DNA from: a virus
Lineage: Duplodnaviria; Heunggongvirae; Uroviricota; Caudoviricetes
Virus record (IMG/VR): IMGVR_UViG_2526164631_000023
DNA: 64,000 nucleotides
Direction: 5' to 3' (one strand)
Position 1 is the first letter of the stretch, and each line of letters starts with the position of its first letter. Below are positions 6,135 to 57,013 of this stretch, one piece after another. The translations under genes were made by a program, and so were the position numbers. Under the pieces are notes generated by a model, which worked only from the letters and a program-made list of their open reading frames with translations, did not search any database and was not told the origin of the DNA.

Positions 6135-6150
6135 TTTGTCCCTTGTTTAC

Positions 6151-6543: not shown

Positions 6544-6556
6544 AACTCTAATGATT

Positions 6557-26100: not shown

Positions 26101-27475
26101 AGTCTTGAGGACTGGTTCCTATGCGAAATTCGCTGGCGAGATTATTTCCAAATCGGCGAATGGTCTGCGCATTGTCTATGGCAACTATGGATTCTTTATC
26201 CGAAACGATGGTTCAAGCACATACTTCATGTTGACCGATTCGGGTAACAGCCTAGGAACCTATAATAGGTTAAGGCCGCTTATCATTAACAATGCCAATG
26301 GTGCTGTTACGATCGGTAATGGACTCAATGTTACTGGCGGCATCAATGGTAGTTTGAACGGTAATGCTGCAACTGCAACAAAACTGCAAACAGCACGCAC
26401 AATAGGCGGTGTGTCATTCGATGGCTCCGCCAATATCAACCTGCCGGGTGTAAACATTGCTGGTAACCAGAACACAACCGGTAATGCAGCGACAGCGACC
26501 AAGTTGCAGACAGCATGTACTATCAACGGCGTCTCGTTTGATGGTTCTAAAGATATTGAACTTAACCCACGGTCTATAGGCACGATCAACTCCACAACAA
26601 TGTCTTTTAGTGGTGGTGCTGGATGGTTCAAGCTAGCAACTGTAACCATGCCACAGGCCAGTTCCGTGGTTTACATAAGCCTGATTGGTGGTGCAGGGTA
26701 TAACGTTGGCTCCCCGCATCAAGCAGGCATCTCTGAGCTGGTTCTGCGTGCCGGAAATGGAAATCCAAAAGGTATTACTGGTGCATTATGGCGACGGACC
26801 TCGGTTGGATTTACTAATTTTGCATGGGTGAATACATCTGGTGATACCTATGATGTTTATGTTGAAATAGGTAATTACGCCACAGGTGTTAATATTCAGT
26901 GGGATTATACCAGTAACGCCAGCGTAACGATTCATACATCACCAACTTATACAGCGAATAAACCAACAGGCCTGACAGATGGAACTGTATATGTAATTTA
27001 CAGTTCGCACATTAAACCGACTGCTGCTGATGTTGGGGCGTTGTCATTATCTGGAGGTCAATTGAATGGTGCACTGGGCATCGGAACATCCAGTGCTCTT
27101 GGCGGTAACTCGATTGTTTTGGGTGATAATGACACGGGCTTTAAACAAAATGGCGACGGTAATCTGGACGTTTATGCTAATAACGTCCATGTTATGCGCT
27201 TTGTCTCCGGCAGCATTCAAAGTAATAAAACCATAAATATTACAGGGCGTGTTAACCCCTCGGATTACGGTAACTTTGATTCCCGTTATGTGAAAGATGT
27301 TCGCCTGGGTACGCGTGTTGTTCAATTGATGGCGCGTGGTGGTCGTTATGAAAAAGCCGGACACGCAATTACCGGATTAAGAATCATTGGTGAAGTAGAT
27401 GGCGATGATGAAGCCATCTTCAGACCAATACAAAAATACATCAATGGCACATGGTATAACGTCGCACAGGTGTAA
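23150..27475 (+). CDS. Tail fibre protein S: constant N-terminal part fused to the currently expressed variable C-terminal cassette
   Basis: 1441 aa with repeated GNAATATKLQTARTI(N/G)GV(S/T)FDGS motifs and C-terminal ..INGTWYN; shares internal segments with reverse-strand cassette. Confidence 0.8.
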   Translation: MIMGADKTNNIMTLSSGVSQPLLADVQYFELYSSSALNRKLKNIVLPGFYCGFEPVPGAGLRVRITSENSEGKGAASVDVNNVQISVQQIEDVTVSVKAGATNIIVLEANFEHGVKTTQVESASSVSAARIYARTDNTIGQNQIELCRVIVPNGATAVTKEMIVLKYRVNRAVGVEFSNEISSTEERKAATPLAVKTLHDLVDTKAPLDSPHLSGTPTAPTASQGTNSTQIANTAFVKAAITALINGAPGTLDTLKEIAAAINNDPNFSTTINNALALKAPLASPAFTGTPTAPTASQGTNSTQIATTAYVRAAISALVGSSPEALDTLNELAAALGNDPNFATTMTNALAGKQPLDATLTALASLATGANKLPYFTGKDTVAQTDLTSVGRDILAKTSILAVIQYLGLRELGTSGEKIPLLSTANTWSARQTFNGGITGALTGNADTATKLKTKRSLQVDLQSDNAIDFDGSSNALLGIKGILPITHGGLGASSVSGGRTNLGLGVADVPQFKGINLVNSTDADLAASGIVSGYLNNSAGVQRSRFRIYSEIRSGNRSWLTLHLQSDTNTNKYAGLDIDGNFLITGDSKCRALEPTDAALTRKNIDVYSKAEVDLKKGMKFTRVNAPSGAEEGKFYPVVIKRSATSNGELASRVIISTASRQAAHRMNNCEFNGFVMPAGWSDRGRYAYGMFWQYQDAERAIHSIAMSNKDDEVSSVFYIEGGAFPVCVLVEEGLSVVVPTTDYIVGQTTYKWGATNPKAECIAADIIIDFSNGRGFYSSGNLNGNAATATKLQTARTINGVTFDGTTDISLTPENIGALSLSGGTLLGGLTAPLLTTKSDLIFSSHTSRHIRFTYTKNDGTTLTDGYIFKDGVDNPNRRPGIRINCAAPNKETGNGTNSGDWIFGEDGIFTMPGGTVLRGGINSNGVPQSEYKHDMLTSVVDDAKMYLRRFRSSTGASIWHETIENNVYRLCTGTTDAQEELVLRTGSYAKFAGEIISKSANGLRIVYGNYGFFIRNDGSSTYFMLTDSGNSLGTYNRLRPLIINNANGAVTIGNGLNVTGGINGSLNGNAATATKLQTARTIGGVSFDGSANINLPGVNIAGNQNTTGNAATATKLQTACTINGVSFDGSKDIELNPRSIGTINSTTMSFSGGAGWFKLATVTMPQASSVVYISLIGGAGYNVGSPHQAGISELVLRAGNGNPKGITGALWRRTSVGFTNFAWVNTSGDTYDVYVEIGNYATGVNIQWDYTSNASVTIHTSPTYTANKPTGLTDGTVYVIYSSHIKPTAADVGALSLSGGQLNGALGIGTSSALGGNSIVLGDNDTGFKQNGDGNLDVYANNVHVMRFVSGSIQSNKTINITGRVNPSDYGNFDSRYVKDVRLGTRVVQLMARGGRYEKAGHAITGLRIIGEVDGDDEAIFRPIQKYINGTWYNVAQV
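24357..24382. other. gix/cix-like 26-bp recombinase crossover site (site A), in frame inside the fibre gene
   Basis: TTATCCAATACC TT GGTTTAAGAGAA matches remembered Gin-site TTATCCAAAACCTCGGTTTACAGGAA at ~20/26; encodes VIQYLGLRE. Confidence 0.5.
26132..26365. repeat. 234-bp inverted repeat, copy 1 (inside S), ~98% identical to reverse complement of 29167-29400
   Basis: Both copies encode EIISKSANGLRIVYGNYGFFIRNDGSSTYFMLTDSGNSLGTYNRLRPLIINNANGAVTIGNGLNVTGGINGSLNGNA. Confidence 0.8.
26196..26221. other. Candidate crossover site B inside the inverted repeat
   Basis: TTATCCGAAACG AT GGTTCAAGCACA; left half fits Hin-family half-site; inverted copy at 29310-29335. Confidence 0.3.
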
Positions 27476-27478
27476 ATT

Positions 27479-28006
27479 ATGCAGCATTTAAAAAATATTA
27501 AGTCAGGAAATCCAAAAACAAAAGAGCAATATCAGCTAACAAAGAATTTTGATGTTATCTGGTTATATACAGAAGACGGTAAAAACTGGTATGAGGAAGT
27601 AAATAACTTTCAGGACGACACCATAAAGATTGTTTACGATGAAAATAATATTATTGTCGCCATCACCAAAGATGCATCCACGCTTAACCCTGAAGGTTTT
27701 AGCGTCGTTGAGGTTCCCGATATTACAGCCAACCGCCGCGCTGATGATTCAGGAAAGTGGATGTTTAAGGATGGAGCTGTAGTTAAACGGATTTATACGG
27801 CAGACGAGCAACAACAACAGGCCGAATCACAAAAGGCCGCATTGCTTTCCGAAGCTGAATCAGTCATCCAACCGCTGGAACGCGCTGTCAGGCTGAATAT
27901 GGCAACAGACGAGGAACGCACACGACTGGAAGCATGGGAACGCTACAGTGTTCTGGTCAGCCGTGCGGATACGGCAAATCCTGAATGGCCACAAAAACCA
28001 GAGTAA
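27479..28006 (+). CDS. Tail fibre assembly chaperone (U/Tfa) for the current cassette
   Basis: 175 aa; N-terminal half ~70% identical to reverse-strand paralog 28035..28568; starts 4 nt after S stop. Confidence 0.8.
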
Positions 28007-28010
28007 AAAT

Positions 28011-28030
28011 TAAGGCCCGATAGCGGGCCT
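28011..28030. terminator. Bidirectional hairpin between convergent U and U' genes
   Basis: aaggcccgatagcgggcctt: 7-bp stem aggcccg/cgggcct. Confidence 0.45.
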
Positions 28031-28034
28031 TCTC

Positions 28035-28568
28035 TCATTCTGGTTGTTCGGGAAACGTTACTGGCAGGCCGGAAGTGTCTGTAGATTCGACTTTCTGCGC
28101 ATAGAGCATCCACTCGGTTAATTTTTGTTTATTCTCGTCGGAAATGATGCCCAGCCGTAGCTGTGAGTCCCATAGCTGGGTTTTATCCCTGACAAGTTGC
28201 AACAGGCTTTGCTTTTCATTTTCCGCTTGTTGCCTCTGCTCTTCCTCGGTATAAGTTCGCTTTATCACTACGCCATCTTTGAACATCCATTTCCCCGAAA
28301 TATCAGCCCGGCGATTTGCTGTAATATCAGGTAATTCAACGACGCTTGCACCCTCTGGATTAATTGCTGAAACATCCTTTTCAATACAAATAATAACGCC
28401 GTTATGGTCATAGACCATTTTCAAAGTGTCTGGCTGGAAATTCTTTTGTTCCTCATACCAGTTTTTTCCATCATCTGAATAAAGCCATTTGATGTTAAAT
28501 TGCTTTGTTAGCTGGTATTGCTCTTTTGTTTTAGGGTTGCCAGCAGTAATGTTTTTTAAGTGCATCAT
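28035..28568 (-). CDS. Alternative tail fibre assembly chaperone (U')
   Basis: 177 aa paralog of U on the opposite strand, directly downstream of the alternative fibre cassette. Confidence 0.8.
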   Translation of the reverse strand: MMHLKNITAGNPKTKEQYQLTKQFNIKWLYSDDGKNWYEEQKNFQPDTLKMVYDHNGVIICIEKDVSAINPEGASVVELPDITANRRADISGKWMFKDGVVIKRTYTEEEQRQQAENEKQSLLQLVRDKTQLWDSQLRLGIISDENKQKLTEWMLYAQKVESTDTSGLPVTFPEQPE

Positions 28569-28570
28569 CG

Positions 28571-30241
28571 TTAAATACTCCCCGCGTTATACCACGTCCC
28601 ATTAATGCAATACTGAATTGGCCTTGCCTGAGTTGTATCAATTAATTCATCACGGTTTCCGTTAACTGAACCCGTAACGACATAACCTGACCTGTCAGAC
28701 CAGCCGGGACCATTCCATGTCTGAACAGATGACAGACCGCCAAGGCGAATACCTGTAATAAACCTTGAGTTACATTCTGCCTGCGTGTATGCACCAACAT
28801 CTCCCGCAGAGGGTTTGCGGGTCGTGGTGTAAAACTCTGACCAGTCAGCCTCAAATCCATAACCATCACGCGCTGAACGATAAAAGATACCGCCGTTTTT
28901 ATAATTCACGCGGAACTGTACAGCAGGGCAACTCCCCGCATTCATATTAAAGTGGAGGATTAATGTCGATGCGCCACCAATGTTTGCGTTATAGACCCCG
29001 CTATTCCAGTTCCAGCCAACAGCTTTATCATTTGCGACCCTGCTTCCTGTTTGCCCTAGAGCAAACGCACCTACATGACTTGCTTTTAATGTGATATCGG
29101 AGGAACCATCAAAAGCCACGCCACTTATTTTTCTGGCAGTTTGTAACTTTGTAGCCGTAGATGCATTACCGTTCAAACTACCATTGATGCCGCCAGTAAC
29201 ATTGAGTCCATTACCGATCGTAACAGCACCATTGGCATTGTTAATGATAAGCGGCCTTAACCTATTATAGGTTCCTAGGCTGTTACCCGAATCGGTCAAC
29301 ATGAAGTATGTGCTTGAACCATCGTTTCGGATAAAGAATCCATAGTTGCCATAGACAATACGAAGACCATTCGCCGATTTGGAAATAATCTCGCCAGCAG
29401 CAGTTAATCCGCCAGTTAACGCTCCTCCAGATAGTGGTAAAGCTCCGACATCAGCCGCAGTAGGCTTGTTTTTAGTGTTATACGCTCTGCGCCATCCTGG
29501 TGAATAACTTGTGCCATTAGACACATAGATAAATTCAGCATTAGTGAGTGCGCCAGATACACTTGTCATCGTTGCCGTTGTTATTCGAATGGTGTAATTG
29601 TTGGTATTATTGCTGAATACTTCTATCACAGCACCCGCCAGTGGAATAATGCCACAACCAGTTTCACTGTCTGGTATGGATGCACTATTTGCATACGCCC
29701 AAGCACAACGAGCGAACCATGCTTTCGTATTGAATGCCCCGTTATTTTGCAACAAAGTAACTAACTGGGCTGTCGTTATTGACTCACCGTTATTACCTGT
29801 TGTTAACCAACCAGTAGGAGATGCCGGGCAACCAATATTTGCTGGTGACAGTGAAATATTCGCAGAACCGTCAAATGAAACCCCATTAATGGTACGTGCT
29901 GTTTGTAATGTCGTGGCAGACGCCGCATTTCCTGTTGTGTTCTGGTTGCCCGTTGTATTTACGCCCGGTATGGAGTCTTTCGATGTATAGACCTGTGCCC
30001 ACTCAGACCATGCCGCACCTGTGTAATCTCTTCGGGAGCGAATGAAAACTGGCGCATGTGCACCGCTCGTACCACTCCAGCCAATAAGCAACTCGCCCTC
30101 ACCAGCAGCACTCGCACCTTTCATGTGCAATACGTTGCCATACGTGGTCGGGTAGCTATTGTTGTACGCCTCGTACATTTGAATGCCAGCAGCGCCTTGA
30201 GTAGAGCCGCTTAACGCCGTAACTCGGCCACGAGATACCAA
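28571..30241 (-). CDS. Alternative tail fibre C-terminal cassette (Sv'): promoterless, no credible start
   Basis: Track start is TTG without SD and frame closes 15 codons upstream; fibre repeats (GNQNTTGNAASATTLQTARTINGVSFDGS) and C-terminal ..INGTWYNAGSI. Confidence 0.7.
   Translation of the reverse strand: MVSRGRVTALSGSTQGAAGIQMYEAYNNSYPTTYGNVLHMKGASAAGEGELLIGWSGTSGAHAPVFIRSRRDYTGAAWSEWAQVYTSKDSIPGVNTTGNQNTTGNAASATTLQTARTINGVSFDGSANISLSPANIGCPASPTGWLTTGNNGESITTAQLVTLLQNNGAFNTKAWFARCAWAYANSASIPDSETGCGIIPLAGAVIEVFSNNTNNYTIRITTATMTSVSGALTNAEFIYVSNGTSYSPGWRRAYNTKNKPTAADVGALPLSGGALTGGLTAAGEIISKSANGLRIVYGNYGFFIRNDGSSTYFMLTDSGNSLGTYNRLRPLIINNANGAVTIGNGLNVTGGINGSLNGNASTATKLQTARKISGVAFDGSSDITLKASHVGAFALGQTGSRVANDKAVGWNWNSGVYNANIGGASTLILHFNMNAGSCPAVQFRVNYKNGGIFYRSARDGYGFEADWSEFYTTTRKPSAGDVGAYTQAECNSRFITGIRLGGLSSVQTWNGPGWSDRSGYVVTGSVNGNRDELIDTTQARPIQYCINGTWYNAGSI
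29167..29400. repeat. 234-bp inverted repeat, copy 2 (inside Sv')
   Basis: Reverse complement nearly identical to 26132-26365. Confidence 0.8.
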
Positions 30242-30265
30242 TGTATTAATGTTGGTTTAAGAGAA
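30240..30265. other. Second gix/cix-like site (site C), same orientation as site A
   Basis: AATGTATTAATG TT GGTTTAAGAGAA; right half and next ~130 bp identical to site A flank. Confidence 0.4.
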
Positions 30266-30568
30266 CTCGGTACCAGCGGTGAAAAGATCCCCCTGTTGAG
30301 TACGGCTAACACATGGAGTGCACGCCAGACTTTCAACGGCGGGATCACCGGGGCGCTGACAGGGAATGCCGACACCGCGACGAAATTGAAAACAGCACGC
30401 ACGATTGGCGGTGTGGTATTTGATGGCTCGGCCAATATCAACCTTCCAGGTGTAAATACAACAGGTAACCAGAACACCACCGGGAATGCTGCTACCGCGA
30501 CAAAACTTGCGACGGCAAGAAACATCAACGGTGTTAAGTTTGATGGCTCAGGCGATATCAAGGTTTAG
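30252..30568 (+). pseudogene. Third, short tail-fibre 3' cassette (S'') lacking a start codon; possible remnant
   Basis: First 142 bp ~96% identical to 24369-24510; encodes ..GLRELGTSGEKIPLLSTANTWSARQTFNGGITGALTGNADTATKLKTARTIGG..GDIKV; stop overlaps invertase stop. Confidence 0.5.
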
Positions 30569-31125
30569 GATTGAAATGATGACGCCGGAAACTTCTTATA
30601 AAGCGTGGAAACAGCCACATCATAGATGATTGCAACCTGCTTACGGGGGATGCCCTTCTCCAGCAATCGCCGCATTTGCTGCCATGTTTCTTCTTGGTAT
30701 TTAGGCCGACGCCCACCTATACGACCTTCTGCGCGAGCTGCATCAAGTCCAGCGCGTGTACGTTCAACGATAAGCTCGCGTTCCATTTCTGCCAGCGCCC
30801 CCATTACGTGAAAGAAAAAGCGCCCCATTGGTGTACTGGTGTCGATGGAGTCAGTGAGACTCCGGAAGTTAATGCCTTTGTCACGAAGCTCTTCCACCAG
30901 CACAACCAAGTGACGCATGCTGCGCCCAAGACGATCTAACTTCCATACGACTAGGGTGTCACCTCTGGAAAGCATACGGAGAACCTTTTTTAACCCAGGG
31001 CGTTCAGCCTTTTTGCCGCTCGCCTTATCCTCAAAAATTAGCTCACATCCTGCGCTTTCAAGGGCGTTTCGTTGTAAAGCTGTGTTTTGGTCATTAGTTG
31101 ATACGCGAATGTATCCAATAAGCAT
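30565..31125 (-). CDS. Serine DNA invertase, Hin/Gin/Cin/Min family
   Basis: From ATG (complement 31125) MLIGYIRVSTNDQN..GDTLVVWKLDRLGRS..MGALAEMERELIVERT.. with catalytic Ser in the YxRVST motif and C-terminal HTH; SD aagggg upstream; track start 31185 is an in-frame upstream extension. Confidence 0.9.
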   Translation of the reverse strand: MLIGYIRVSTNDQNTALQRNALESAGCELIFEDKASGKKAERPGLKKVLRMLSRGDTLVVWKLDRLGRSMRHLVVLVEELRDKGINFRSLTDSIDTSTPMGRFFFHVMGALAEMERELIVERTRAGLDAARAEGRIGGRRPKYQEETWQQMRRLLEKGIPRKQVAIIYDVAVSTLYKKFPASSFQS

Positions 31126-31229
31126 ATGTCCCCCTTGTATGTTAAGGAGGGAGATTTTAGAAGATGTCCTGTAAGGAAATAACAAACTGACTAAGTTAGT
31201 GGCGCATTAGATGTTATTTCTGGAGGGGT

Positions 31230-31556
31230 ATGTTTGCAGATTATGAAAATCTGGCTGTAGTAGTCATAACATCCCTACTAAGTGGAACCGGCGTATTCCT
31301 TCTCGGAGTTAGAGACGGGCGCATTTCTGCGTCCCTGCTCAATCTTGCGAGTGAATTGTTTACTGCGGTAACAGCCGGGCTTGCGGGGTATGGGGTGGCG
31401 GTTAGCCAAGAATGGCCTGAAGGTATCATTTTCTGCGTTGTTCTGATTGCCAGTAACAACGGTAGTGAAATTTTACAGGGCTTAAAGTCCAGAGCTAGTA
31501 ACGTCTTGAATCTCTTAAGCGTAATAGCGAATGGGGGAAAAGGTGGAGAGAAATAA
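31230..31556 (+). CDS. Holin-like small membrane protein (P1 LydA position)
   Basis: 108 aa with hydrophobic segments; SD ggagggg; first gene of a long rightward operon. Confidence 0.4.
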   Translation: MFADYENLAVVVITSLLSGTGVFLLGVRDGRISASLLNLASELFTAVTAGLAGYGVAVSQEWPEGIIFCVVLIASNNGSEILQGLKSRASNVLNLLSVIANGGKGGEK

Positions 31557-32002
31557 TGGGTAACTTTGGAAATTATTTCATTTTTATCATGGCATTTGTT
31601 GCCATCATTGACCGTTTCATTTTTCGTCGCAAGAGTGTTGAGATTTTGAGTATTGGTGACGCTGTAGTGAAAGAATCCGCTATAGCATTTCCTGTTTCGC
31701 TACGTGTTAAGCGAAGCTGGGTCAGCAATGCTCAAATCGAATATTGGTTGCAAGACCTGAAAAATCCATCTGTGGTTATTTCAGGGAAAACGCGACCAGT
31801 TGACGCCTCAAAACGCGGTGAGAGAGAAGAGTATTTGCTCATCGATACGAAATATCTTGAGCCAACGAAGTGGGATCTGAAAGTCACATTGACTAACGGT
31901 AACTGTCGACTGAATCCGCTTTATCGCATTTTCCCTATCAATGACTGCATAGAGCGCCAGTTTACGATCGAAAAGCGTGAAGGAGACTGGGATGTCAAAT
32001 AA
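31556..32002 (+). CDS. Membrane-anchored protein (P1 LydB position; possible antiholin)
   Basis: 148 aa, N-terminal hydrophobic FIFIMAFVAIIDRFIF; start overlaps previous stop. Confidence 0.35.
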   Translation: MGNFGNYFIFIMAFVAIIDRFIFRRKSVEILSIGDAVVKESAIAFPVSLRVKRSWVSNAQIEYWLQDLKNPSVVISGKTRPVDASKRGEREEYLLIDTKYLEPTKWDLKVTLTNGNCRLNPLYRIFPINDCIERQFTIEKREGDWDVK

Positions 32003-32612
32003 GAATAATTATGTTCTTCTTAATTATGATGAGTTAAACGAAAAGGGGCTGTCAAAACTCGTCAAAGAAATCAGCAAAGGTGGTTACAAGATAGCGAGGG
32101 TGATCCCTGCAAGTAATGGCAGGAAGAAAGATGGGATCATGACGCGCACGTTTACCCTTATTGGTATTGATGAACAGACAATGGAAGTTCAGGTTAACGA
32201 TACCGGTGATATATCTGGGATCAAACTGAATGGTAAAACAGTACCGTTCAAGCCAGTAAAAACAATGTCGGCTTTGGGGCAATCTCTTGCGGCTTTATTT
32301 AATCGCGGAGCAACTTCTTTCCAGAAGTCATTAGCTCGAAAACTTGCTCGTGCAGCAAAAAATATTGATGACGGAAATAAGAAGCGGCAGGGAGTTAAAT
32401 CTAACGCTCAGAAATTAGCTGAAGCGAAAGAATCACGTGATGCACTCCGTGAAGATATCGCTAATGCTAACGACAAACTGTCTAAACTCCAGAGCAAGTC
32501 AGACAAAGTAATGCAAGATACGGGTAATGTTAAAGCTGCCTTGTCTCAGGAAGTAGCTAAGACACGTGCTCTTAAAGAAGAAATCGCGCGCCTGGAGGAT
32601 GAGCATGATTAA
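31992..32612 (+). CDS. Coiled-coil protein (P1 Hdf position)
   Basis: About 206 aa from internal ATG (MSNKNNYVLL); track ORF starts 31977. Confidence 0.3.
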   Translation: MSNKNNYVLLNYDELNEKGLSKLVKEISKGGYKIARVIPASNGRKKDGIMTRTFTLIGIDEQTMEVQVNDTGDISGIKLNGKTVPFKPVKTMSALGQSLAALFNRGATSFQKSLARKLARAAKNIDDGNKKRQGVKSNAQKLAEAKESRDALREDIANANDKLSKLQSKSDKVMQDTGNVKAALSQEVAKTRALKEEIARLEDEHD

Positions 32613-34541
32613 CAATCCTTTACGAATTAATATTCAGTCTACTTTTGCTGATACGATCCCCGGCTATATGCCAAGTCGCTGGTCTTCAGAAGAATTAAGC
32701 GAAGATGACCTGATTTTTGAGGCGGCGACCTTAGAAGATATTGAGCTTGCCTATATGGGCAATGAAATTCTGGTTGTGTCTGACGAAGCTATGTTTGAGT
32801 CCATAACTACAACCAGAATTCGGTTAGCTCAAACAATGCGAGCTTTCGTCCGTGCGCTGAATCGTGGCCTGAATGGTACGAATATTATGGCAGGGACTGA
32901 TGAAGCCGGGACCGATGAAAATGGACGTAATTGTATTGGTGGTGCGATTATCGGTCGTGTACGTCGGGTAGCTAATATCCCTGTTTTGACCGCGCAGATA
33001 CCGCTTACTGACGGGCAGAGTACAAGCATAATTTTCCACTCTCCAACAGCTGACGGGGCAAAAATAAAGAGTAACGACGAGCTTGTTGCATTTCAGTTTT
33101 TACTTAATAAGCGTAACGTAACTCACGTTGTCGCCCCGATTGGTGGGAGAGATGTTTCTTTAAGCCAGGTATGCCAGGCGCTATCTAATTTGATTGAGCG
33201 TAACAGCGAAAAATTTAAGAAGGCAAAAGAGCGCCAGGACAAAATGAAGGCAGATATTGAGAGTTATCTCAATGAAGCAGATAAACTGGCAGAAGAACGG
33301 TCAATAATGATTGATCAGGTGGACGTTGCGCAACGTGGGCTGACTGAAAAGCGTGCTGCTCTTACGGAGATGCAAAAAAACTTGATGCCCAGAAAGCCAT
33401 CAACGAGGAATTACAAGCAAAACGCGATAAATTGTTGTCTGCTAAAGGTGAAAAAACGAAAGAACGAGCGTTTAGCGACCAGCTGCGACATGTAAAACAT
33501 AATCTTGCCATTGACGGAAAAACAGTGCTGGATAATGGCGCTGAAGTTAATTATGTCACGTCCGGCAGTGACAATTTCGTTACGATAGTAGCACCTGAAG
33601 GTAAATTCAGTATTGATGCCAGTGCTGTCAAAGGAGGCAGTTTGGCAGATGCTGCAACCAAATTACTTAAAGCCTACCGAGAGCATAACGCAGATAAATA
33701 TAAAGTTGATGTGTTACCAGGCCAGCAGGAAGACCCCGAACCACCACAGACAGACCCCGAGACGAACCCAGTATCACAACCAGAGAGCCAGGATGTAGGT
33801 AAATACCACTATGCACTTCAATCTCGCCCGGCTGGTGTTGGTGCTGTGCCGGATGGAAATAAAGCCGTGCTTGATCGTCCTGACCAGGCTGATCAGTATT
33901 ACGAATATGCTCGTCACGGTATCATTACGTATGACCGTAAACTGACAGATGAAGAAGTCAGCCAGTACGAGTTGCTCTATCTTCCTGATGAAGATGAGCT
34001 GAAAGATTTTGCAGGCCAATTGGTTGTGTCCAGCATGTCGAAACATATTGATGGCTATGTAGACCTGTTTGGCAGTGACCTGAAAACATTCAAGGCGCAA
34101 GTGAAAATTCTTTTCCGCAAAGCGTTTCCAAACGTGGCGTATCCACTTGGTGATGGGGAGAACCTTTTCATTATGGACGTATATAACGCCCTTCAAAATC
34201 ATTCAAACGAAGTAACGCCAGAGCCTGAATTAGCACCTGTAGTTGAGCCAGAATCACACCCACAAACAGCACCAGAGCAACAGCCAACGCCGGAAGACGC
34301 TGAAGAAGCGGCAACTGAAGCTGATCAGGAAGCAGATAAAGCACTGGAGTACCTAAAATCCGTCCCGGTGCAGTTTACATCTCGCGATCTGACGGTAATC
34401 AGTGCCGAACTTGACCATGTGCAGGAAGCTGCAAACGCTCTTATCAGTGCTGGTCGATACGACGAGAACGAATCAACGGTTGGCGCAGCAGTTGACTACC
34501 TGATCAACATTCTGGCTGAAATTCAGCAGGGAGGTGCTTAA
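32604..34541 (+). pseudogene. darA-like virion antirestriction/head gene split by +1/-2 frameshift in an A7 tract (33374-33380)
   Basis: ORFs 32566..33495 and 33432..34541 overlap in different frames; one extra A gives a continuous ~645-aa protein (..TEMQKKLDAQKAINEELQAKRDKLLSAKGEK..), size close to P1 DarA as remembered. Confidence 0.5.
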
Positions 34542-34915
34542 TGACTATCTCTGTTTTAGACCGTCTGAAATTGGGTAAAGAGCTATCAGATTTAATGCAG
34601 GCGCAGAAAACCGCGCCAGTATTACAACGCGTCGCCATTGGTAAGCAGATTGTTGATCTGATGCTTAAACTGGGGTTGGGTACTGCCGCTCAACCGATGT
34701 CGGAACCGCAACCACAACCACAGTCTGATCCTGTTGCAGATGAAGTTCCTAAGATAGTGACTGACTTCCTGGGCGGCGTGTTCACAAAGTCCACACAAAT
34801 GGAATTTATTGATGCGCTGCGTGGGATCTCAAACTATGTTGGCGAGTTCCTTACGTTGGAGCAGGCTAAAGAACAGACCATAAGCTGGGTGAAAGCCAAC
34901 GGTTATGCCGGGTAA
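34541..34915 (+). CDS. Hypothetical protein (P1 DdrA position), 124 aa
   Basis: ATG overlaps upstream stop; followed by a terminator. Confidence 0.3.
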   Translation: MTISVLDRLKLGKELSDLMQAQKTAPVLQRVAIGKQIVDLMLKLGLGTAAQPMSEPQPQPQSDPVADEVPKIVTDFLGGVFTKSTQMEFIDALRGISNYVGEFLTLEQAKEQTISWVKANGYAG

Positions 34916-34918
34916 TCA

Positions 34919-34941
34919 AAAGGGGGCGAAATGCCCCTTTC
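34919..34941 (+). terminator. Intrinsic terminator after the holin/darA-like operon
   Basis: aagggggc gaaat gccccctt then T-rich tcacttctctgttctc. Confidence 0.5.
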
Positions 34942-34997
34942 ACTTCTCTGTTCTCACATAAATCACACTCTTTTTACACTCACAGCTTTCTCTATAG

Positions 34998-36395
34998 TTG
35001 GAGTGTATTTTGAACAAATCAGTTACTTCTGCGCTTTCCGAGGCCGCAGATATTAACAGCGTCATTGCTCTGGTTTCTTCATTAGAGAGGAAAGAAACAC
35101 GCCTGGGGCGAAGTAGCTACGTAGTCACCAGCAAAGGTGCAGAGGTAAAGACGGCTTTTAAGGTCGTTGATGCCAGCAGTCTGATCATTTCGAACAACCT
35201 TGACGGTATGATTAACCCGGCCTTCCCGGAAGAACTCCAACCACGAGATCGTACCCGGCTATCCAGCAAACTCCAGGTTAACCGTATTGCCTCCAATTTA
35301 CGCCCGGCACAATTAACGGATTCCGGTATGAGCAGCCACGGAGCGCCGATAGTTGGTCCGGACAACGTTGTTGAATCCGGCAACGGAAGGAGTATGGGTA
35401 TCTGGCGTGCCTATGAGCAAGGACAGGCGGATGAGTATCGCCAGTACCTGATCGACCATGCGAAAGAGTTTGGTCTGAATCCTGACGAAATTTCGCAAAT
35501 GTCTATGCCCGTACTAGTGCGAGAAAGACTCACAGATGTAGACCGCGCTCAATTTGCCCGCGATTCAAACATTAGCGATCTGCAAGAGATGGCAGCAAGT
35601 GAAAAAGCGTATGCGGATGCGCAATTTCTCACTGAGAGCGTCATGGCGCTATTTAATCCTTCAGATGATGGAAATCTGCTGGCGCGGTCCAATGATGCGT
35701 TTATTCGTGCGTTTTTGCGCGAAATTGGCGATACAGCGACGGCAGGCTTGCTTACTGCCGATGGGCGTCCCACGAAACAGCTTATCGATCGCATCCAGAA
35801 TGCAATTTTTGCCAAAGCGTACAAGGATGAAAGGCTTGTTCGGCTAGTGTCGGAAGAGCCAGATCCGGAAATGCGTAATATCCTGACCGCATTAAATACG
35901 GCAGCCAGCGATTTTGCGCAAATGCAGTCGCTGTCTGGCGACGCTCACCATGACGCAGTAACAGGCTTAGTGGACGGTATAGAGCAGGTTAATGGCCTGG
36001 ATACACAGGCGATAGCAGCACTCCAGGAAGCAATTAATCTTGTACGTGAAGCCAAAGACAACGGTCAGGCCGTTGAAGAAGTGATCGCCCAAAGGGGGTT
36101 ATTCGGCGACAGTACACCGGAAGCTGAGGCATTGGCGTTATTCATCGTAGCAAATAATCGCAGTGCGAAGCGTATGGGGGCAGCATTCAAAAAAATGGCG
36201 CAAAAAATCAACGACGAGCTGACTCATAAACAACAGGCATTGGGCGATATGTTCGGCGGTGGCGATGTTGATCTGCGTCGTATTTTGTCTGCTGTATCTG
36301 ATGAAATTGAGGGTGAATTTGGCGAAGGGAAAGGTCTGAACTTTGCTATGTTTGAAAATTCTACAGATCTAAATAATTGCCGTACGGAAAACTAA
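34998..36395 (+). CDS. Hypothetical protein, 465 aa (start uncertain)
   Basis: ORF only; upstream AAATCACA late-promoter-like motif. Confidence 0.3.
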   Translation: MECILNKSVTSALSEAADINSVIALVSSLERKETRLGRSSYVVTSKGAEVKTAFKVVDASSLIISNNLDGMINPAFPEELQPRDRTRLSSKLQVNRIASNLRPAQLTDSGMSSHGAPIVGPDNVVESGNGRSMGIWRAYEQGQADEYRQYLIDHAKEFGLNPDEISQMSMPVLVRERLTDVDRAQFARDSNISDLQEMAASEKAYADAQFLTESVMALFNPSDDGNLLARSNDAFIRAFLREIGDTATAGLLTADGRPTKQLIDRIQNAIFAKAYKDERLVRLVSEEPDPEMRNILTALNTAASDFAQMQSLSGDAHHDAVTGLVDGIEQVNGLDTQAIAALQEAINLVREAKDNGQAVEEVIAQRGLFGDSTPEAEALALFIVANNRSAKRMGAAFKKMAQKINDELTHKQQALGDMFGGGDVDLRRILSAVSDEIEGEFGEGKGLNFAMFENSTDLNNCRTEN

Positions 36396-36459
36396 ACCAA
36401 CCGCTGAAATCACATACTGATTATGCTGCCGCAAAACTGGAAACAATTTGCGGTGATTC

Positions 36460-38142
36460 ATGGCAACGAAAGACAAAAACAAAGGCTTTCTGTCAGCATT
36501 GAAGAAAGCCTTCAACGGTGGTGATGTTACGCCCGCCGATCCGGTCGTTTTTACGAGCGGACATAGTGTCGTTGCTCGTTCCGGCCTGTCTGCTTTACGT
36601 CCAGGCATCCTGGGGAGCAATGGCGATGGCATTACGAGTGAAGCAGATTCAATTTCTTTATCCGCTGAACTGCCCGGCGAGCGCCTGCAAAAGTACAACA
36701 TCCTGGAAACGATGGCTAAAAGCCCGACTATCTCGACGGCTTTAAACATTCACATTGCACATGCGCTTGCGCCTTCAAAAAAAACCGGACAAGCATTTAT
36801 CCTTTCGCCAAAGGATGGTTCCGATGCCGAGGCAGTAAGTAGATGTGAAGAGTTAACCGCTGATTTGGGGGCGATGATTAATGACGGACTTCCTTCATGG
36901 GCCATGATTATGGCGATCTTTGGGGTGTCTTATGTCCGACCTTATGCTGAACAGGGCAGGGGGATAACAGGCATTGAGTCCAGTTATTACACTCTGCCAC
37001 ACTTCGTCCAGGAGTTTTATCGTGGTAGCCAGCTGGTAGGTTTCAGTGGTGATTACATTCTGGATACGCATAGTTTGCGCAGAGTAATAACCGAACCGTG
37101 GAATCTGGTTTCCATGAAAAATCCCTATTGGACGCCACAGCATAAAGTTATTCCGGTTAGCTACGGCACAAAAGGGTACTCACTGTTAAGTGATCAGGCT
37201 GATAAGCCGTTAATGGAGACGCAGAATTACGGAACTTCATTCCTGGAATACAGCTATGAACCTTACCTTAATTTATGTGCTTCGCTCGCCGCGCTGAAAT
37301 CAACGCGAAATAATGCAGCCAAAATTGACCGCCTGATTGCTCTTACGACGAACACACTGGACCCGGTTAATGCGGCGAACTATACGCGTGGCGTCAGCCA
37401 GGCATTGAAGCGTCATAGTGACCTGGTGGCGCAAAGGTCGATTAATGCCAACGCTATTCCGACTGTGCTTAACCATCTGATACCTGTTATGGGAGACGGG
37501 AAGAACGGCATCACCATTGATACGCAATCCATACCCGCAGATATCAGTGGTATCGAAGACGTTATGTTTCACCTCCGGCAGCTTGCTGCAAGCCTCGGCA
37601 TTGACGCAACAATGCTTGGCTGGGCTGATCAGATGAGCGGAGGGCTTGGAGAAGGCGGCTGGCAGCAAACTGCTATCCAGGCTGCATTGCGTGCGAACTG
37701 GATCAGACAGGCCGCCCAGCGAACTATTTATCGGCTTCTGGACATTCACCTCGCTTATAAATACGGCAAGGTTTACACCGAAACAAACCGCCCTTATGAC
37801 GTGCAATTCAACTCAATGAACACAGCTATCCAGGAAGAGGAAAACCGAGAACTGGATGCACGCGCCAACTTTGTTGCTGTCATCTCCCAAATTATGGACC
37901 AGATCCAGAACAACCCGAAACTGGCTGGTAGCGACGCGTTTATGCGTTATCTGTTCACTGAGCAGTTGCACATCGACGATGACACTCTCAACACCATGAT
38001 CAAAGAGTTTAAGGCGAATGAATCAGAGCAAAACAACGAGCATGGTATGTACGAATCCGCGCCGTTGTCGTCCGGTGACGATCCGGAAAACTGGACGCCA
38101 GAACAGTTAATAAACTTTGCAAAATTTGTGATGAGCAATTAA
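36460..38142 (+). CDS. Candidate portal protein (560 aa)
   Basis: Size and position immediately upstream of candidate protease/scaffold gene, as in P1 prt-pro; unverified. Confidence 0.4.
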   Translation: MATKDKNKGFLSALKKAFNGGDVTPADPVVFTSGHSVVARSGLSALRPGILGSNGDGITSEADSISLSAELPGERLQKYNILETMAKSPTISTALNIHIAHALAPSKKTGQAFILSPKDGSDAEAVSRCEELTADLGAMINDGLPSWAMIMAIFGVSYVRPYAEQGRGITGIESSYYTLPHFVQEFYRGSQLVGFSGDYILDTHSLRRVITEPWNLVSMKNPYWTPQHKVIPVSYGTKGYSLLSDQADKPLMETQNYGTSFLEYSYEPYLNLCASLAALKSTRNNAAKIDRLIALTTNTLDPVNAANYTRGVSQALKRHSDLVAQRSINANAIPTVLNHLIPVMGDGKNGITIDTQSIPADISGIEDVMFHLRQLAASLGIDATMLGWADQMSGGLGEGGWQQTAIQAALRANWIRQAAQRTIYRLLDIHLAYKYGKVYTETNRPYDVQFNSMNTAIQEEENRELDARANFVAVISQIMDQIQNNPKLAGSDAFMRYLFTEQLHIDDDTLNTMIKEFKANESEQNNEHGMYESAPLSSGDDPENWTPEQLINFAKFVMSN

Positions 38143-38155
38143 CCGGAGGGAAATA

Positions 38156-39154
38156 ATGCAATCACTGAATACTGTTACGGATCGCTTCTCCCTGGTAGAG
38201 AAAATCCGCAAACACACACCGCAGAACAACCGAAATTACGTCATTCAGTCGGTACGAGACACATTCAACTCGCCAGAAACAAAAGAGCGTATCGCGCTGG
38301 GTGAGATGTATGGTTATTACGGTCATGGTCGCCGGGCGATGCACTATAACAAAACGAAAAGCCTGAACTTGCCGGAAGTCTCTGTTGTGATGGTAGATGG
38401 GAAGCCTGTTGTATTGGAGAACGTGCCGTCAAACAGGACTATCGACATTTCGATTGACGACAACGGCATTGTTACTCATACGCAGGAAATACTGAATACA
38501 GACACCGGGCATATTGTTCAGGGCATGATTAATTCTGGTGCTGGTGGTTGGTCGTGGGCTACATCTGGTCCAGATTCATCGGTATCCCTGGTAAAGTCTT
38601 TCCACGGCTTTGATTACGTAACTGTGCCTAACTATATCAGCCTCGACAAGAAAAGCCTGATGCTTGAATCAGCAGAAGAGCGCGATGCGGCTATTCATGC
38701 AGCACTTATCGAACAAGGTTTTACCGATAACGCTGCTACGGATCTGGTTCACCACTTTTCAGCAATGAAAAATCAGCAAGCCATGCTCGAATCTGCACAT
38801 CGTGAAGCCCTGGAATCAGAATTGATGCTCCTTGAAGTGGAAAACATACAGCTTCGAGATAAGCTGCGCGCTCAAACAGCGATGATGGAAAGCCAGGGGG
38901 AAAATGCAAAGCAATGCCGCCGGATTTTGCGTGAAGCTATCCAGGAAATGCCTGTTTTTATCAGCGCAGAACAGCGCCGGGCGCTCTGCCGTATGCAGTC
39001 TGAAGATGATGCCCGCATAGTGGCTGCGATGCTTGAATCTCTTGGGGCAAATGCTACTTATGGCTTACCGGTATCAGGCAAGAAAGAACCAGAGTTATCA
39101 CCGAAGGAGAACAAAAACACTACCCCGTTACTCTTCGTTTCCAGAAGGGGGTAA
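38156..39154 (+). CDS. Candidate prohead protease/scaffold protein (332 aa)
   Basis: Globular N-terminal domain (GYYGHG, GGWSWATSG) plus long C-terminal coiled coil; position after candidate portal. Confidence 0.35.
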   Translation: MQSLNTVTDRFSLVEKIRKHTPQNNRNYVIQSVRDTFNSPETKERIALGEMYGYYGHGRRAMHYNKTKSLNLPEVSVVMVDGKPVVLENVPSNRTIDISIDDNGIVTHTQEILNTDTGHIVQGMINSGAGGWSWATSGPDSSVSLVKSFHGFDYVTVPNYISLDKKSLMLESAEERDAAIHAALIEQGFTDNAATDLVHHFSAMKNQQAMLESAHREALESELMLLEVENIQLRDKLRAQTAMMESQGENAKQCRRILREAIQEMPVFISAEQRRALCRMQSEDDARIVAAMLESLGANATYGLPVSGKKEPELSPKENKNTTPLLFVSRRG

Positions 39155-39184: not shown

Positions 39185-39269
39185 TGTATTTATATACACT
39201 GTTGATCCTGGTGGATGGGATCGAGTAGGATCGCGGTCACTGCTCCGGTAGCGACTGCCAAAAAAGCAA

Positions 39270-39292
39270 AAGCCGCTGAGAAGCGGCTTTTT
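39270..39292 (+). terminator. Intrinsic terminator after candidate protease gene
   Basis: aagccgct gaga agcggctt followed by TTTT. Confidence 0.6.
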
Positions 39293-39354: not shown

Positions 39355-39843
39355 GTGAGTATTTTAAATTCAGTTTCAGTAACTTTCAACACTTCTGAGT
39401 ATAAAAACAACACTGAATACCACAAAAAAATCAAAGGTCATCAGTTGAGTTTTTTTGCTCGTCATAGCGGTCTTCTTTCCCCTTCACATAGCGCCATTAT
39501 TGCCGAGTTCGCCAACCTGGCAGGGTCTACCGATGAATACATGATCCGTCGCTCATATGCTGATATGTCCGAGATTACAGGACGCAGTATTTCTACTGTG
39601 CGCCGGGCATTTGCTGAAGCGACGAAGTGCGGAATGCTTGTTAAGCAACATCAGGTAGCGAATAACAATGCCCAGGTGTGTAACGTATATCGGTTTACGA
39701 CACAATTTCTCCACTTCATTCATGTAGCAATGGAGATAGGGGGTAAGCAGGGCATCAAATTTGCCAACGCCACAAAACTGGTTAAGCAGTTGATTTCAAA
39801 GGTTCGTTATTTTTTGAAACTGGGACCCCCCTGTTCAAATTGA
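39355..39843 (+). CDS. Helix-turn-helix DNA-binding protein (162 aa)
   Basis: MSEITGRSISTVRRAFAEATKCGML resembles an HTH. Confidence 0.4.
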   Translation: MSILNSVSVTFNTSEYKNNTEYHKKIKGHQLSFFARHSGLLSPSHSAIIAEFANLAGSTDEYMIRRSYADMSEITGRSISTVRRAFAEATKCGMLVKQHQVANNNAQVCNVYRFTTQFLHFIHVAMEIGGKQGIKFANATKLVKQLISKVRYFLKLGPPCSN

Positions 39844-40316
39844 ACAAGTCCCCCCATGTTCAAAATGAACAGCCAATAGAAAATAAGAGTCACTCTATAG
39901 CCAAAAGAAGAGAAAGATCATGCGCGGTTCAGCCAAAGGCTTCACCAGCAGATAGTTCTCAAACGGCTAACGTGGTGCTGGATAAAAAACCAGTAATCAG
40001 GGAAGAACATACCAACCACTGCCTGGCGGCGGCAAAAGCGAGAGCTGCAAAGCGTCGTTCAGACGAGGGGCACGCAAAACGGCAGGCTCTGTATCGTACC
40101 GCTGAAAAGCTGGCAAAAAAATTTGCATGGATACGTAGTGCCGCTACCGCAGTGAATAAGCCTAAACAATCCAGTGCCCTGGATTTCTCAATGGATTATT
40201 CTGGCTCCCAGGGGTGTGCAACCATTGGTGAAGCCTTTGACCTGATGAAACAGCGTGGCTATCGGTCTGAATTTGACCGTGAGGATTGGTCAATCCCGGC
40301 TGGCTTTAGGGGATGA
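39840..40316 (+). CDS. Hypothetical basic protein (158 aa)
   Basis: ORF overlapping previous stop. Confidence 0.3.
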   Translation: MNKSPHVQNEQPIENKSHSIAKRRERSCAVQPKASPADSSQTANVVLDKKPVIREEHTNHCLAAAKARAAKRRSDEGHAKRQALYRTAEKLAKKFAWIRSAATAVNKPKQSSALDFSMDYSGSQGCATIGEAFDLMKQRGYRSEFDREDWSIPAGFRG

Positions 40317-41892: not shown

Positions 41893-42378
41893 TCATGCCT
41901 CATTAGTTGAGGTTGCTGCGTCTCCGACTGGTAACAGAGCGGTATTGCGTGGTTCGCCAGCAGGCCAGCGATAGCCAGACACTCTTGATGTTGGGAATGC
42001 GCGAATATTAACCGCATCCCCCTGGTTCCCACCCAGGACAAGCAGATCGCCATTGGCGCGGCGTCCGACAACGAAGCCTACGTGCCCACCGCCTACGCGG
42101 GTAAATACAACGATACATCCGTATGCCGGTGTATCTAATTTCTCGCCCCAATCCAGATAGGATTTTGCCGACTCAAATCTTGTTGAGCGGATGCCTACAC
42201 GTTCCAGCATTGCACCGACAAATGCTGCGCACCACGGCGTTTCATCGTCTTTAATTCCGCCGCGCTTGATGTCGCGCCAGAACTGAACGATTTCAGGGTT
42301 GTGTTTAGCGCCTTTTATTTCAGTCAGGCCAATGTGCTTACGGGCTTCAATTAGCCAGCGAGGTTCAATGTTTGCCAT
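41893..42378 (-). CDS. CHAP/NlpC-P60-like Cys-His peptidase domain protein
   Basis: ETPWCAAFV (Cys) and GGHVGFVV (His) spacing typical of CHAP-type hydrolases; divergent from the DarB-like gene. Confidence 0.45.
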   Translation of the reverse strand: MANIEPRWLIEARKHIGLTEIKGAKHNPEIVQFWRDIKRGGIKDDETPWCAAFVGAMLERVGIRSTRFESAKSYLDWGEKLDTPAYGCIVVFTRVGGGHVGFVVGRRANGDLLVLGGNQGDAVNIRAFPTSRVSGYRWPAGEPRNTALLPVGDAATSTNEA

Positions 42379-49401: not shown

Positions 49402-49836
49402 ATGACGACATTAATTGACACTGTAAAACCGACGGAATCCTACCTTGATGACAATTTGCCGCAGGCGCTCAATGGCAGGAGTGAAGAGGCGTTTCTGGAT
49501 GCATATCTGAATGGCATGGTGGAAAGGCTGAAACGAGATCCACAGCTTTATCACCTTTATGGGCCGTGGTGGCCTGCGCTTAAAACGTTATTGCTGGAGC
49601 GCGGCGACATATCATTTGGACAAGTTGTAGATAGTGATGTGGCAGAGATCTACAAAATGAGTCGCCCGGCGCTTACGGTTTTGGCTGGGCATCTGTATTC
49701 GAGCGATCGCCTGGAAAATGACGCGGTATACAATCCTGTTCATGCTCTGGAAGTCGCACCTTATGCCGATGATACAGAGCCATACGTGTACACAAGTTAC
49801 GACGAGTCTATAGAGAAATATCGAATCATGGGGTAG
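49402..49836 (+). CDS. Hypothetical protein (144 aa)
   Basis: ORF only. Confidence 0.3.
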   Translation: MTTLIDTVKPTESYLDDNLPQALNGRSEEAFLDAYLNGMVERLKRDPQLYHLYGPWWPALKTLLLERGDISFGQVVDSDVAEIYKMSRPALTVLAGHLYSSDRLENDAVYNPVHALEVAPYADDTEPYVYTSYDESIEKYRIMG

Positions 49837-53798: not shown

Positions 53799-53874
53799 GA
53801 TGGTGTAGCTCAGTAGGATAGAGCAGCAGCCTTCTAAGCTGTCGGTAGGTGGTTCGAATCCACCCACCATCGCC
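53799..53874 (+). tRNA. tRNA-Arg (anticodon TCT)
   Basis: Hand-folded cloverleaf: acceptor gatggtg/caccatc, T-arm ggtggTTCGAATccacc, anticodon loop cTTCTAa, 3' CCA encoded. Confidence 0.65.
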
Positions 53875-53879
53875 AATTT

Positions 53880-53967
53880 AGGGGAGTTAGTCCGTAGGGG
53901 TAGCGGGGTAGACTGTAAATCTACTGTCATTGCGACTCGGGTGGTTCGACTCCATCACTCCCCACCA
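53880..53967 (+). tRNA. tRNA-Tyr (anticodon GTA), long variable arm
   Basis: Acceptor ggggagt/actcccc, anticodon stem-loop gtaga-cTGTAaa-tctac as in E. coli tRNA-Tyr, T-loop TTCGACT, CCA encoded; D-arm irregular. Confidence 0.55.
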
Positions 53968-53971
53968 AATT

Positions 53972-54047
53972 GCCGGTTTAGCTCAGTTGGTAGAGCAGTC
54001 GCTTTGTAAGCGAATGGTCAGCGGTTCGATCCCGTTAACCGGCACCA
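53972..54047 (+). tRNA. tRNA-Thr (anticodon TGT)
   Basis: Acceptor gccggtt/aaccggc, D-arm gctcAGTTGGTAgagc, anticodon loop tTTGTaa, T-loop TTCGATC, CCA. Confidence 0.65.
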
Positions 54048-54501
54048 ACACAACAGGTAAGAGCATTTGTAGAGTTCGACTCTCTACCGTGGGCTTTTTC
54101 CCGCGATGCGAGCCATAAATGCTCTTACCGTTGTGATGAAGTGCAGCTCTTTGAAGCAACCAGAAGATAAGCATCTGGCTTCACAACATAAACCGCAGGA
54201 ACGACCAATAAACGGTAGTCCGTATGGAGAACACCCCGTTGAGGAAGAGGTCTGGCCGGAACCGTAACCGGCACTACAACGTTGAGAACACTGGCGTAAC
54301 GGGGTCATATCCCAATCTACGAATAAATGTTGCGTTGCAGCGTGACAACCAGTGTTCTCAACATTGTGGTGAATGCGCAGGCTGATGCGCGAAAGACATT
54401 GCAGCTATTGCGGAAAAGAGCTGTTCGGCGGGGCAATTAAACGCCCGTGAGAGTCTGAAATAACCGCAAGCCGGAGATCAGCACCGGTCGCCACAATAAC
54501 G

Positions 54502-55008: not shown

Positions 55009-55017
55009 CAGTAATCT

Positions 55018-56620: not shown

Positions 56621-57013
56621 ATGGAACAAATCAGCAGCGCAGAAATTGCGGATATCATGATCAGGGCTGACTGCTATCTGACAGTCACTGAAATTACCAC
56701 TCTCGCCAAAGAAAAATACCCTCATCTCCATGTTTCACGAGTAAGTGTAACTAACATCATTCGTCATTTTGTTCGTTCAAGCAGGGCAATCTGTGAGCTT
56801 GATGATCGTGTTTACCCACGAAAATACTGGTTGCATGGCCTGAACGGATATCAGTTCAAGGTGCGTGGGCGAACCCCTGAATACGGCAGTTTACTGGTTA
56901 AAAACTGTAGCAGGAAATCAGTCGAACAGGCGCGAAAAGAGCAACGAGAGCTGGTGGACATGGCGAATAAGCTGTGGAATGCCGCCGTTAAAAAGCGTGG
57001 TGTTGCTTTATGA
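56621..57013 (+). CDS. Hypothetical protein (130 aa), possibly DNA-binding
   Basis: ORF upstream of and overlapping (ATGA) pacA start; degenerate operator-like sequence at 56511-56550. Confidence 0.3.
   Translation: MEQISSAEIADIMIRADCYLTVTEITTLAKEKYPHLHVSRVSVTNIIRHFVRSSRAICELDDRVYPRKYWLHGLNGYQFKVRGRTPEYGSLLVKNCSRKSVEQARKEQRELVDMANKLWNAAVKKRGVAL

Follow-up and report, generated by a model that had tools for sequence, protein, structure and literature searches.

The 64,000-nt stretch of viral DNA analyzed here (IMG/VR record IMGVR_UViG_2526164631_000023, Caudoviricetes), referred to below as the window, carries on its plus strand, between positions 31230 and 36395, a compact block of genes headed by a putative holin gene. 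The open reading frames (ORFs) in this block encode products of 108, 148, 211 or 206, 309 and 369 (in two overlapping frames), 124, and 465 or 461 amino acids (aa), and the block is flanked by cin, an invertase gene on the minus strand (30565-31125), and by the prt-pro genes (36460-39154). The original prediction, made from the sequence alone, had seen in it a holin-headed operon with the gene order of phage P1. This reading holds, since six genes, lydA-lydB-hdf-darA-ddrA-ddrB, are found in P1 order on the plus strand, as in the P1 dar operon (LPdar-lydA-lydB-hdf-darA-ddrA-ddrB-hxr), which likewise adjoins cin and an invertible tail-fibre segment.

Products of the block were compared by BLASTP with the P1 proteins in NC_005856, which gave E-values ranging from 2e-20 to 5e-140, and 0 for the N-terminal part of DdrB. 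The first gene, lydA (31230..31556, plus), encodes a 108-aa holin that shares 43% identity with P1 LydA over 106 of its 108 residues (E 4e-23) and matches the PHROG 1527 holin family (8e-39). With hydrophobic segments at about residues 6-28 and 56-74 (Kyte-Doolittle windows >1.5), it is predicted to be a small membrane protein with transmembrane segments, belonging to the P1 LydA holin family. The second gene, lydB (31556..32002, plus), encodes a holin antagonist of 148 aa, which scores 87.4 bits against the Pfam LydB family (PF16084, cut-off 28), is 34% identical to P1 LydB (E 5e-29), and matches PHROG 1898 (lysis determining protein, 3e-69). Its family, its position directly downstream of lydA, and its single, N-terminal hydrophobic segment are those of a predicted LydB. 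The third gene, hdf (31992..32612, plus), encodes a head protein with a DarA_N domain (Pfam, 6e-18) of 206 aa, or 211 aa from the first GTG, which is 40% identical to P1 Hdf (E 5e-31) and matches the Hdf-like family PHROG 1620 (2e-76).

The fourth gene, darA (32605..34541, plus), is interrupted in the window by an apparent frameshift, but after a one-base repair it encodes a protein of 645 aa, 39% identical to P1 DarA over 624 aa (E 5e-140). This protein reaches 1141 bits against the NCBIfam equivalog anti_RE_DarA (cut-off 350) and contains the Pfam domains DarA_N and DarA_C, while Hdf is a solo DarA_N, an arrangement that matches the description in PMC5512222. The fifth gene, ddrA (34541..34915, plus), encodes a 124-aa protein with 33% identity to P1 DdrA over 120 aa (E 2e-20) and a match to the DdrA-like family PHROG 1855 (3e-49). 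The first five products, at 108, 148, ~206, ~645 (frameshifted), and 124 aa, had been said to match P1 in size, and they are indeed within 1-6 residues of P1 LydA, LydB, Hdf, DarA, and DdrA (109, 147, 203, 639, and 121 aa, respectively), with identities of 33-43%. The homology on which the original prediction depended is thus borne out for these five proteins by BLASTP and by Pfam, NCBIfam, and PHROGs families, and it extends, in the same order, to the sixth.

This sixth gene, ddrB (35010..36395, plus), encodes a short form of 461 aa, which is 64% identical to residues 2-442 of the 995-aa P1 DdrB (E 0) and contains the Pfam ddrB-ParB domain (2.6e-42). An alternative TTG start at 34998 gives 465 aa, but the TTG at 35010 is the more likely start because GGAG lies 6 nt upstream and because it is also the RefSeq start in the plasmid pDEC12A-1, introduced below. 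The 465-aa gene had been set apart as not matching P1 DdrB in size; the difference is real, with a length less than half of 995 aa, yet its sequence is that of a true DdrB homologue, a natural short form limited to the ParB-like N-terminal half. The protein matches positions 10-444 of phrog_2299, a 995-position profile, as long as P1 DdrB, whose family carries no function name. P1 DdrB consists of a ParB domain and a C-terminal zincin-like metallopeptidase, which probably processes DdrB itself before packaging (PMC5512222). The window DdrB does not display this two-part architecture: it is without residues 443-995 of the P1 protein, for which no homologue was found in the window or in the whole of pDEC12A-1. 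A database search showed that DdrB proteins of ~440-480 aa are the norm on ~85-95-kb contigs from Escherichia, Pantoea, Leclercia, Vibrio, and Photobacterium, and that those of other lineages have differing C-terminal modules, such as InPase. This variation fits the "polyvalent protein" picture of PMC5512222. DdrB is also the operon protein best conserved with respect to P1, at 64% versus 33-43% for its neighbours, which suggests either a stronger constraint on an enzymatic ParB-like domain or a past exchange between the P1 and D6 lineages. The antisense frame annotated as iddB in P1 is similar as well (62%), probably as a mere by-product of ddrB conservation.

Genes for the remaining Dar proteins of P1 lie further along the window, where tblastn locates darB (42529-49365, plus; 2278 aa; 44% identity to P1 DarB over 2000 aa) and ulx (49402-49836, plus; 144 aa; 46% to P1 Ulx, E 1e-37; Ulx-like family PHROG 1629). 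All six Dar components (Hdf, DarA, DdrA, DdrB, DarB, and Ulx) therefore appear from their sequences to be encoded, DarA being intact only when the missing base is restored. Directly after ddrB come prt and pro (36460..39154, plus), encoding a portal protein of 560 aa and a prohead protease of 332 aa that are 50% and 44% identical to P1 Prt and Pro; in P1, these two genes lie instead beyond IS1, ssb, and lyz. In P1, the protease that acts on DarA is presumed to be Pro. The window thus resembles P1 in also encoding DarB, Ulx, Prt, Pro, and an Lpa-like activator.

The element that carries this block is readily recognized. When positions 31000-36500 were used as a megablast query, phage D6 was matched with 97.9% nucleotide identity over 99% of the query. 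The D6 genome was published by Gilcrease and Casjens (2018, Virology 515:203). The same query is covered at >=80% by 115 records of a plasmid collection and 95 records of an E. coli genome collection, nearly all of them non-mobilizable plasmids of ~90 kb, which from their sequences are D6-like phage-plasmids. Plasmid pDEC12A-1 of E. coli O111:H2 12A (NZ_CP077480.1) has the gene content of the window and differs from the full 64 kb by no substitution and only four single-base gaps. The GenBank/RefSeq record of D6 (MF356679 / NC_050154; 2018) already labels six genes as "similar to P1" lydA, lydB, hdf (spelled 'hfd' in the record), darA, ddrA, and ddrB, and therefore the P1-like dar operon described here is known rather than new in kind: it is none other than the orf30-orf25 block of D6. 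The two blocks share the six genes, their order, their overlaps, and a short DdrB (454 aa in D6). They differ in that darA is intact in D6, in that the last ~13 ddrB codons are not the same, and in that an additional ~1.1 kb, missing from the window, separates ddrB from prt in D6 and contains orf23 and orf24, the latter weakly matching DUF4145.

At the site of this D6-specific insert (window 36355-36407 versus 9358-10469 of the D6 locus L001), similarity resumes exactly at a promoter-like box that precedes prt. The insert-free ddrB-prt arrangement is the common one among related plasmids. Other relatives have a DpnII/MboI-like gene, ParAB, or insertion sequence (IS) elements after ddrB, and because different genes or IS elements occupy this position across relatives, it is, judging from these comparisons, a variable cargo site. 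More distant phage-plasmids of Pantoea and Vibrio (loci L008 and L010) share the six-gene order and the LydB, DarA_N, DarA_N+DarA_C, and ddrB-ParB domains. They depart from the window in the length of DarA (737 and 1485 aa, respectively), in an additional C-terminal InPase domain in the 618-aa Vibrio DdrB, and in what follows the operon, namely a DpnII/MboI-like gene in the former and ParAB in the latter.

The junctions within the block are tight. Stop and start codons overlap as TAATG between lydA and lydB and again between darA and ddrA, while lydB and hdf overlap by 11 nt and hdf and darA by 8 nt. These overlaps, running from lydA to ddrA, argue that the first five genes are transcribed together, and they are probably also translationally coupled. 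A terminator scan found no terminator-like site with a convincing T tract inside the lydA-ddrA block, and the first strong terminator on the plus strand, a two-way one, comes only after pro, at 39268-39291. The claim that virion antirestriction genes are co-transcribed with lydA-lydB is thus supported, at the level of sequence, by the overlaps, by the absence of an internal terminator, and by a promoter-like box ahead of lydA. The two wider gaps are the ddrB-prt spacer, of 64 nt, and the ddrA-ddrB spacer, of 94 nt (34916-35009). The latter contains a GC-rich hairpin (34920..34940, plus; -13.5 kcal/mol, z -1.98) followed by UUUCACUU, a poor T tract; the scan calls it terminator-like on the minus strand only, and it is possibly a partial terminator or an RNA-stabilising element.

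The candidate late promoter of the operon (31177..31197, plus) consists of the box AAATAACAAACTGA, 1 nt, and the -10-like TAAGTT, and it ends 33 nt before the lydA ATG. A second late-promoter-like box, AAATCACATACTGA t TATGCT, an exact match to the motif, lies upstream of prt-pro (36407..36427, plus). The box that these sites share, AAATMACAWASTGA, followed by 1 nt and a -10-like TAnnnT, was found by comparing the regions upstream of late genes. With <=3 mismatches allowed, the motif AAATMACAWASTGAnTAnnnT occurs eight times in the window versus 1.2 expected, a count that 0/100 shuffles reach, although these statistics are partly circular since the motif was derived from the window itself. The copies lie at 3861, 6632, 22648, 31177, 36407, 42414 (minus), 42458, and 61003, and a ninth is found elsewhere on the plasmid (locus L006, 25586, minus). 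Every copy is intergenic and directed at a downstream gene. Behind the boxes are lydA (31177), prt (36407), darB (42458), and an endolysin candidate (42414, minus), as well as a PAAR/baseplate operon (3861), a 565-aa head-region gene (6632), and a tail-fibre operon (22648). The Pantoea phage-plasmid, whose DdrB is 79% identical, provides an independent check, the box being found there at 2897 and 9948 of its locus and lying, ahead of lydA, just past a terminator and 37 nt upstream of the gene.

An Lpa-like late-promoter activator (56621..57013, plus; PHROG 1704, Lpa-like transcriptional activator, 2.8e-60) is encoded in the window. Since a lineage-specific box stands before late operons and an Lpa homologue is present, the box is a predicted promoter that may be the D6-lineage counterpart of the P1 Lpa-dependent late promoter, and late control of the operon by an Lpa-type activator is a reasonable inference. 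The P1 late promoter itself was considered for lydA and rejected. Its consensus, read from the annotated LPdar, LPpro, and LPlyz sites, is a 9-bp -22 box (AAGTNACTT), 4 nt, and TANNNT, and it was not found upstream of lydA at <=2 mismatches and 3-5 nt spacing; the lineage-specific box occupies that place instead. Two other sequences were set aside. The palindrome ACTAAGTTAGT at 31190 was dropped as a recurring regulatory site, with nine matches versus 11 expected by chance. The motif TTAAATTTCTAACAT was rejected as a late promoter, its ~9-11 copies lying mostly beside early or immunity-type genes, for example before repL, and none in the dar operon. A 15-bp motif, TTAAATTTCTAACAY, has 11 copies in the window versus 3.1 expected (positions including 6558, 39168, 40370, 51316, 52565, 52721, 56513, 56530, 60963, and 62372), one immediately ahead of repL and others in the neighbourhood of the immunity and packaging region. 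TTAAATTTCTAACAT thus looks more like a repressor operator, and the copies of TTAAATTTCTAACAY resemble repressor operators of the C1 type.

The apparent frameshift in darA, which splits the gene into ORFs 32566-33495 and 33432-34541, can be traced to a run of seven adenines (A7; 33374..33380, plus) that is A8 in D6, in pDEC12A-1, and in the FDAARGOS_1059 plasmid. Adding a single A at 33381 yields the 645-aa DarA, identical to the intact protein of pDEC12A-1 (WP_151297035). The four gaps that separate the window from pDEC12A-1 are A7->A6 (8489), A8->A7 (33381), T7->T6 (39816), and A8->A7 (61147); each removes one base from an A/T run of 7-8, with no gain anywhere and no change in a shorter run. 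The losses at 8489 and 61147 lie in intergenic A runs. The loss at ~39816 breaks repL, a gene for lytic replication, into ORFs 39355-39843 and 39840-40316; D6 and pDEC12A-1 have T7 there, and both darA and repL are intact in the RefSeq record of the latter. The A7 version was matched exactly by only 2 of the 95 plasmid records holding a 71-bp stretch around the run and by none of the genome contigs in an exact search, whereas the 8-base run is present in 11 of the 11 IMG/VR contigs with the flanking sequence. Because all differences are one-base losses in A/T runs, because repL is broken as well, and because nearly all relatives have A8, we consider it highly likely that the darA frameshift reflects homopolymer under-calling in the source assembly. 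If it is indeed an error, DarA would be an intact protein of 645 aa in the real element.

Our overall reading, which we hold with strong confidence, is that positions 31177-36395 constitute the D6-lineage orthologue of the P1 late dar operon, carried by an E. coli plasmid prophage that is essentially pDEC12A-1, with a darA frameshift that is most likely an assembly error. Several observations weigh against parts of this reading. LydA scores 18 bits against Pfam Phage_holin_3_3 (PF16083), below the cut-off of 28.4, although P1 LydA itself barely exceeds it (30.1 bits). The D6-lineage box is unlike the P1 AAGTNACTT-N4-TANNNT promoter in both sequence and spacing, and a search of the Vibrio relative, in which only 17 nt separate lydA from the preceding tail-fibre gene, did not find it. 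The hairpin, together with a weaker copy of the box in the ddrA-ddrB spacer, means that ddrB could be partly a separate unit. Finally, in the FDAARGOS_1059 plasmid (NZ_CP066033.1; 97,453 bp, the same length as pDEC12A-1), IS100 lies inside darA. The site is at 6015-7968 of its locus L004, where two alignment pieces overlap by 5 bp at window positions 34008-34012, consistent with a target duplication, and apart from this insert and the length of the A run the plasmid is identical to the window over the compared stretch. Since the darA of this sister plasmid is disrupted, darA can be lost in this lineage. In pDEC12A-1, IS100 sits elsewhere, in a Tad2/DUF2829 gene.

These points bear on how the data might be read otherwise. 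In this lineage, ddrB might lie outside the lydA operon and be transcribed alone or with prt-pro, as could be surmised from a spacer that holds the GC hairpin and a degenerate version of the box (AAATCACACTCTTTTTACACT), the latter ~35 nt ahead of the ddrB start codon, and from the P1 ddrA-ddrB gap of just 12 nt. We regard such a separation as unlikely, albeit the least unlikely of the alternatives, since the T tract after the hairpin is poor and does not satisfy terminator criteria on the plus strand, the spacer box has >3 mismatches to the motif, and ddrB follows ddrA in every relative examined. As for darA, the one-base deletion could be real, which would make the element a Dar-defective, decaying plasmid prophage whose DarA is limited to an N-terminal fragment of 296 aa; if it behaved like P1 darA nulls, the other Dar proteins would then go unpackaged and more small heads would form. 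The given sequence does read A7, as do two other plasmid records, long A runs are hotspots of replication slippage, and the IS100 insertion in an otherwise identical sister suggests that the element can do without darA as a plasmid. However, 64 kb with no substitution but four one-base losses, each in a run of 7-8 A or T, is what homopolymer under-calling typically produces, one of these losses also disrupts repL, and one of the A7 records, CP042632, is nearly without annotated genes across the operon and could be an error-rich assembly. A genuine deletion is therefore improbable in our view.

Nor did we retain a programmed event at the run, whereby -1 frameshifting on A AAA AAC, or transcriptional slippage, would set the ratio of short to long DarA. 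The zero-frame CAA AAA AAC does contain a canonical X XXY YYZ heptamer, and a -1 shift would regain the DarA frame at the cost of a single Lys-to-Asn change. This was nevertheless rejected, and its probability is very close to nil, because A8 with an uninterrupted 645-aa ORF is the norm in nearly all relatives and because the corresponding codons of the Pantoea, P1, and Vibrio darA genes do not preserve the run. Moreover, no stimulatory structure was noticed, although no search was aimed at one, and A7 is short for efficient slippage by RNA polymerase. A more speculative idea, which we rate as very improbable, is that the A8 of D6-lineage darA is a slippage hotspot acting as a reversible on/off switch for capsid-borne anti-restriction and head-size control, with A7 representing real subpopulations, and that, in parallel, the ParB-like module of the short DdrB enters heads although it does not have the peptidase half that cleaves itself in P1. 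Under-calling in the assembly thus remains the explanation of the darA frameshift that we favor.

How the operon would function can be sketched from what is known in P1, in which the late dar operon comprises LydA and LydB along with anti-restriction and capsid-morphogenesis functions, and in which a delay of LydA-dependent lysis by LydB is a genetic phenotype reported for this phage only (PMC9025707). Late in lytic growth, the Lpa-like activator (56621-57013) would switch on the promoter ~33 nt upstream of lydA, and lydA, lydB, hdf, darA, and ddrA would be transcribed and translated together via their overlapping stops and starts. Transcription would probably run on through the hairpin spacer into ddrB, while the second promoter-like box would serve prt-pro. 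By analogy with P1, LydA would be a membrane holin that LydB restrains against premature lysis. The P1 virion contains 55 DarA-Hdf pairs on the inner capsid, at penton-hexon junctions and touching the DNA, and particles without DarA or without Hdf lose all Dar proteins (PMC12810830, PMC12707154). The P1 analogy thus predicts that Hdf and DarA attach to the inside of the procapsid, help set head size, and are required to load DdrA, DdrB, DarB, and Ulx. In P1, Hdf, DarA, DdrA, DdrB, DarB, and Ulx have all been detected in virions (PMC9024508), and the Dar proteins exit the head with the DNA and guard against type I restriction (PMC12810830, PMC12707154, PMC9024508). By the same analogy, DdrA, DdrB, DarB, and Ulx would be ejected with the DNA, which they would protect in cis against type I restriction.

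The partner of the holin seems to differ from that of P1. No homologue of Lyz, LydC, LydD, LydE, or Hxr was found in the window or in the whole plasmid. While P1 uses the SAR endolysin Lyz, the likely endolysin of the D6 lineage is a soluble TIGR02594/CHAP-domain protein of 161 aa (41893-42378, minus), encoded divergently from darB, which is without a hydrophobic N terminus and is not a SAR lysozyme. Because the plasmid has no homologue of Lyz, we propose this hydrolase as the enzyme that the holin would release, and a soluble endolysin of this kind would depend on a hole-forming holin.

Other features of the window lie away from the operon, apart from an invertible tail-fibre segment (23790-30400) that adjoins cin and carries alternative fibre tips and assembly genes on opposite strands. 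Its repeats are 92% identical between 26132-26438 and 29092-29398, and 96% identical, in inverted orientation, between 24369-24510 and 30252-30393. Five tRNA genes are clustered at 53799-55093 (Arg-tct, Tyr, Thr, Ser, and one with anticodon cat, which RefSeq assigns to Ile), and beside them is a gene named by RefSeq as a Thoeris anti-defence Tad2 family protein (55546-56121). A glnS gene is also present on the plasmid, either just beyond the window or at its start.

In terms of annotation, which is where most of the value of this analysis lies, the genes of the region can with confidence be named lydA, lydB, hdf, darA, ddrA, and a short ddrB of a D6-like phage-plasmid, and the splits in darA and repL are best marked as probable homopolymer errors rather than as signs of pseudogenes. 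Of modest interest for the biology of the D6 lineage is that it joins a P1-type holin/antiholin pair to a different, soluble endolysin, that its DdrB is without the peptidase half, and that its late promoters seem to carry a box that is not that of P1.

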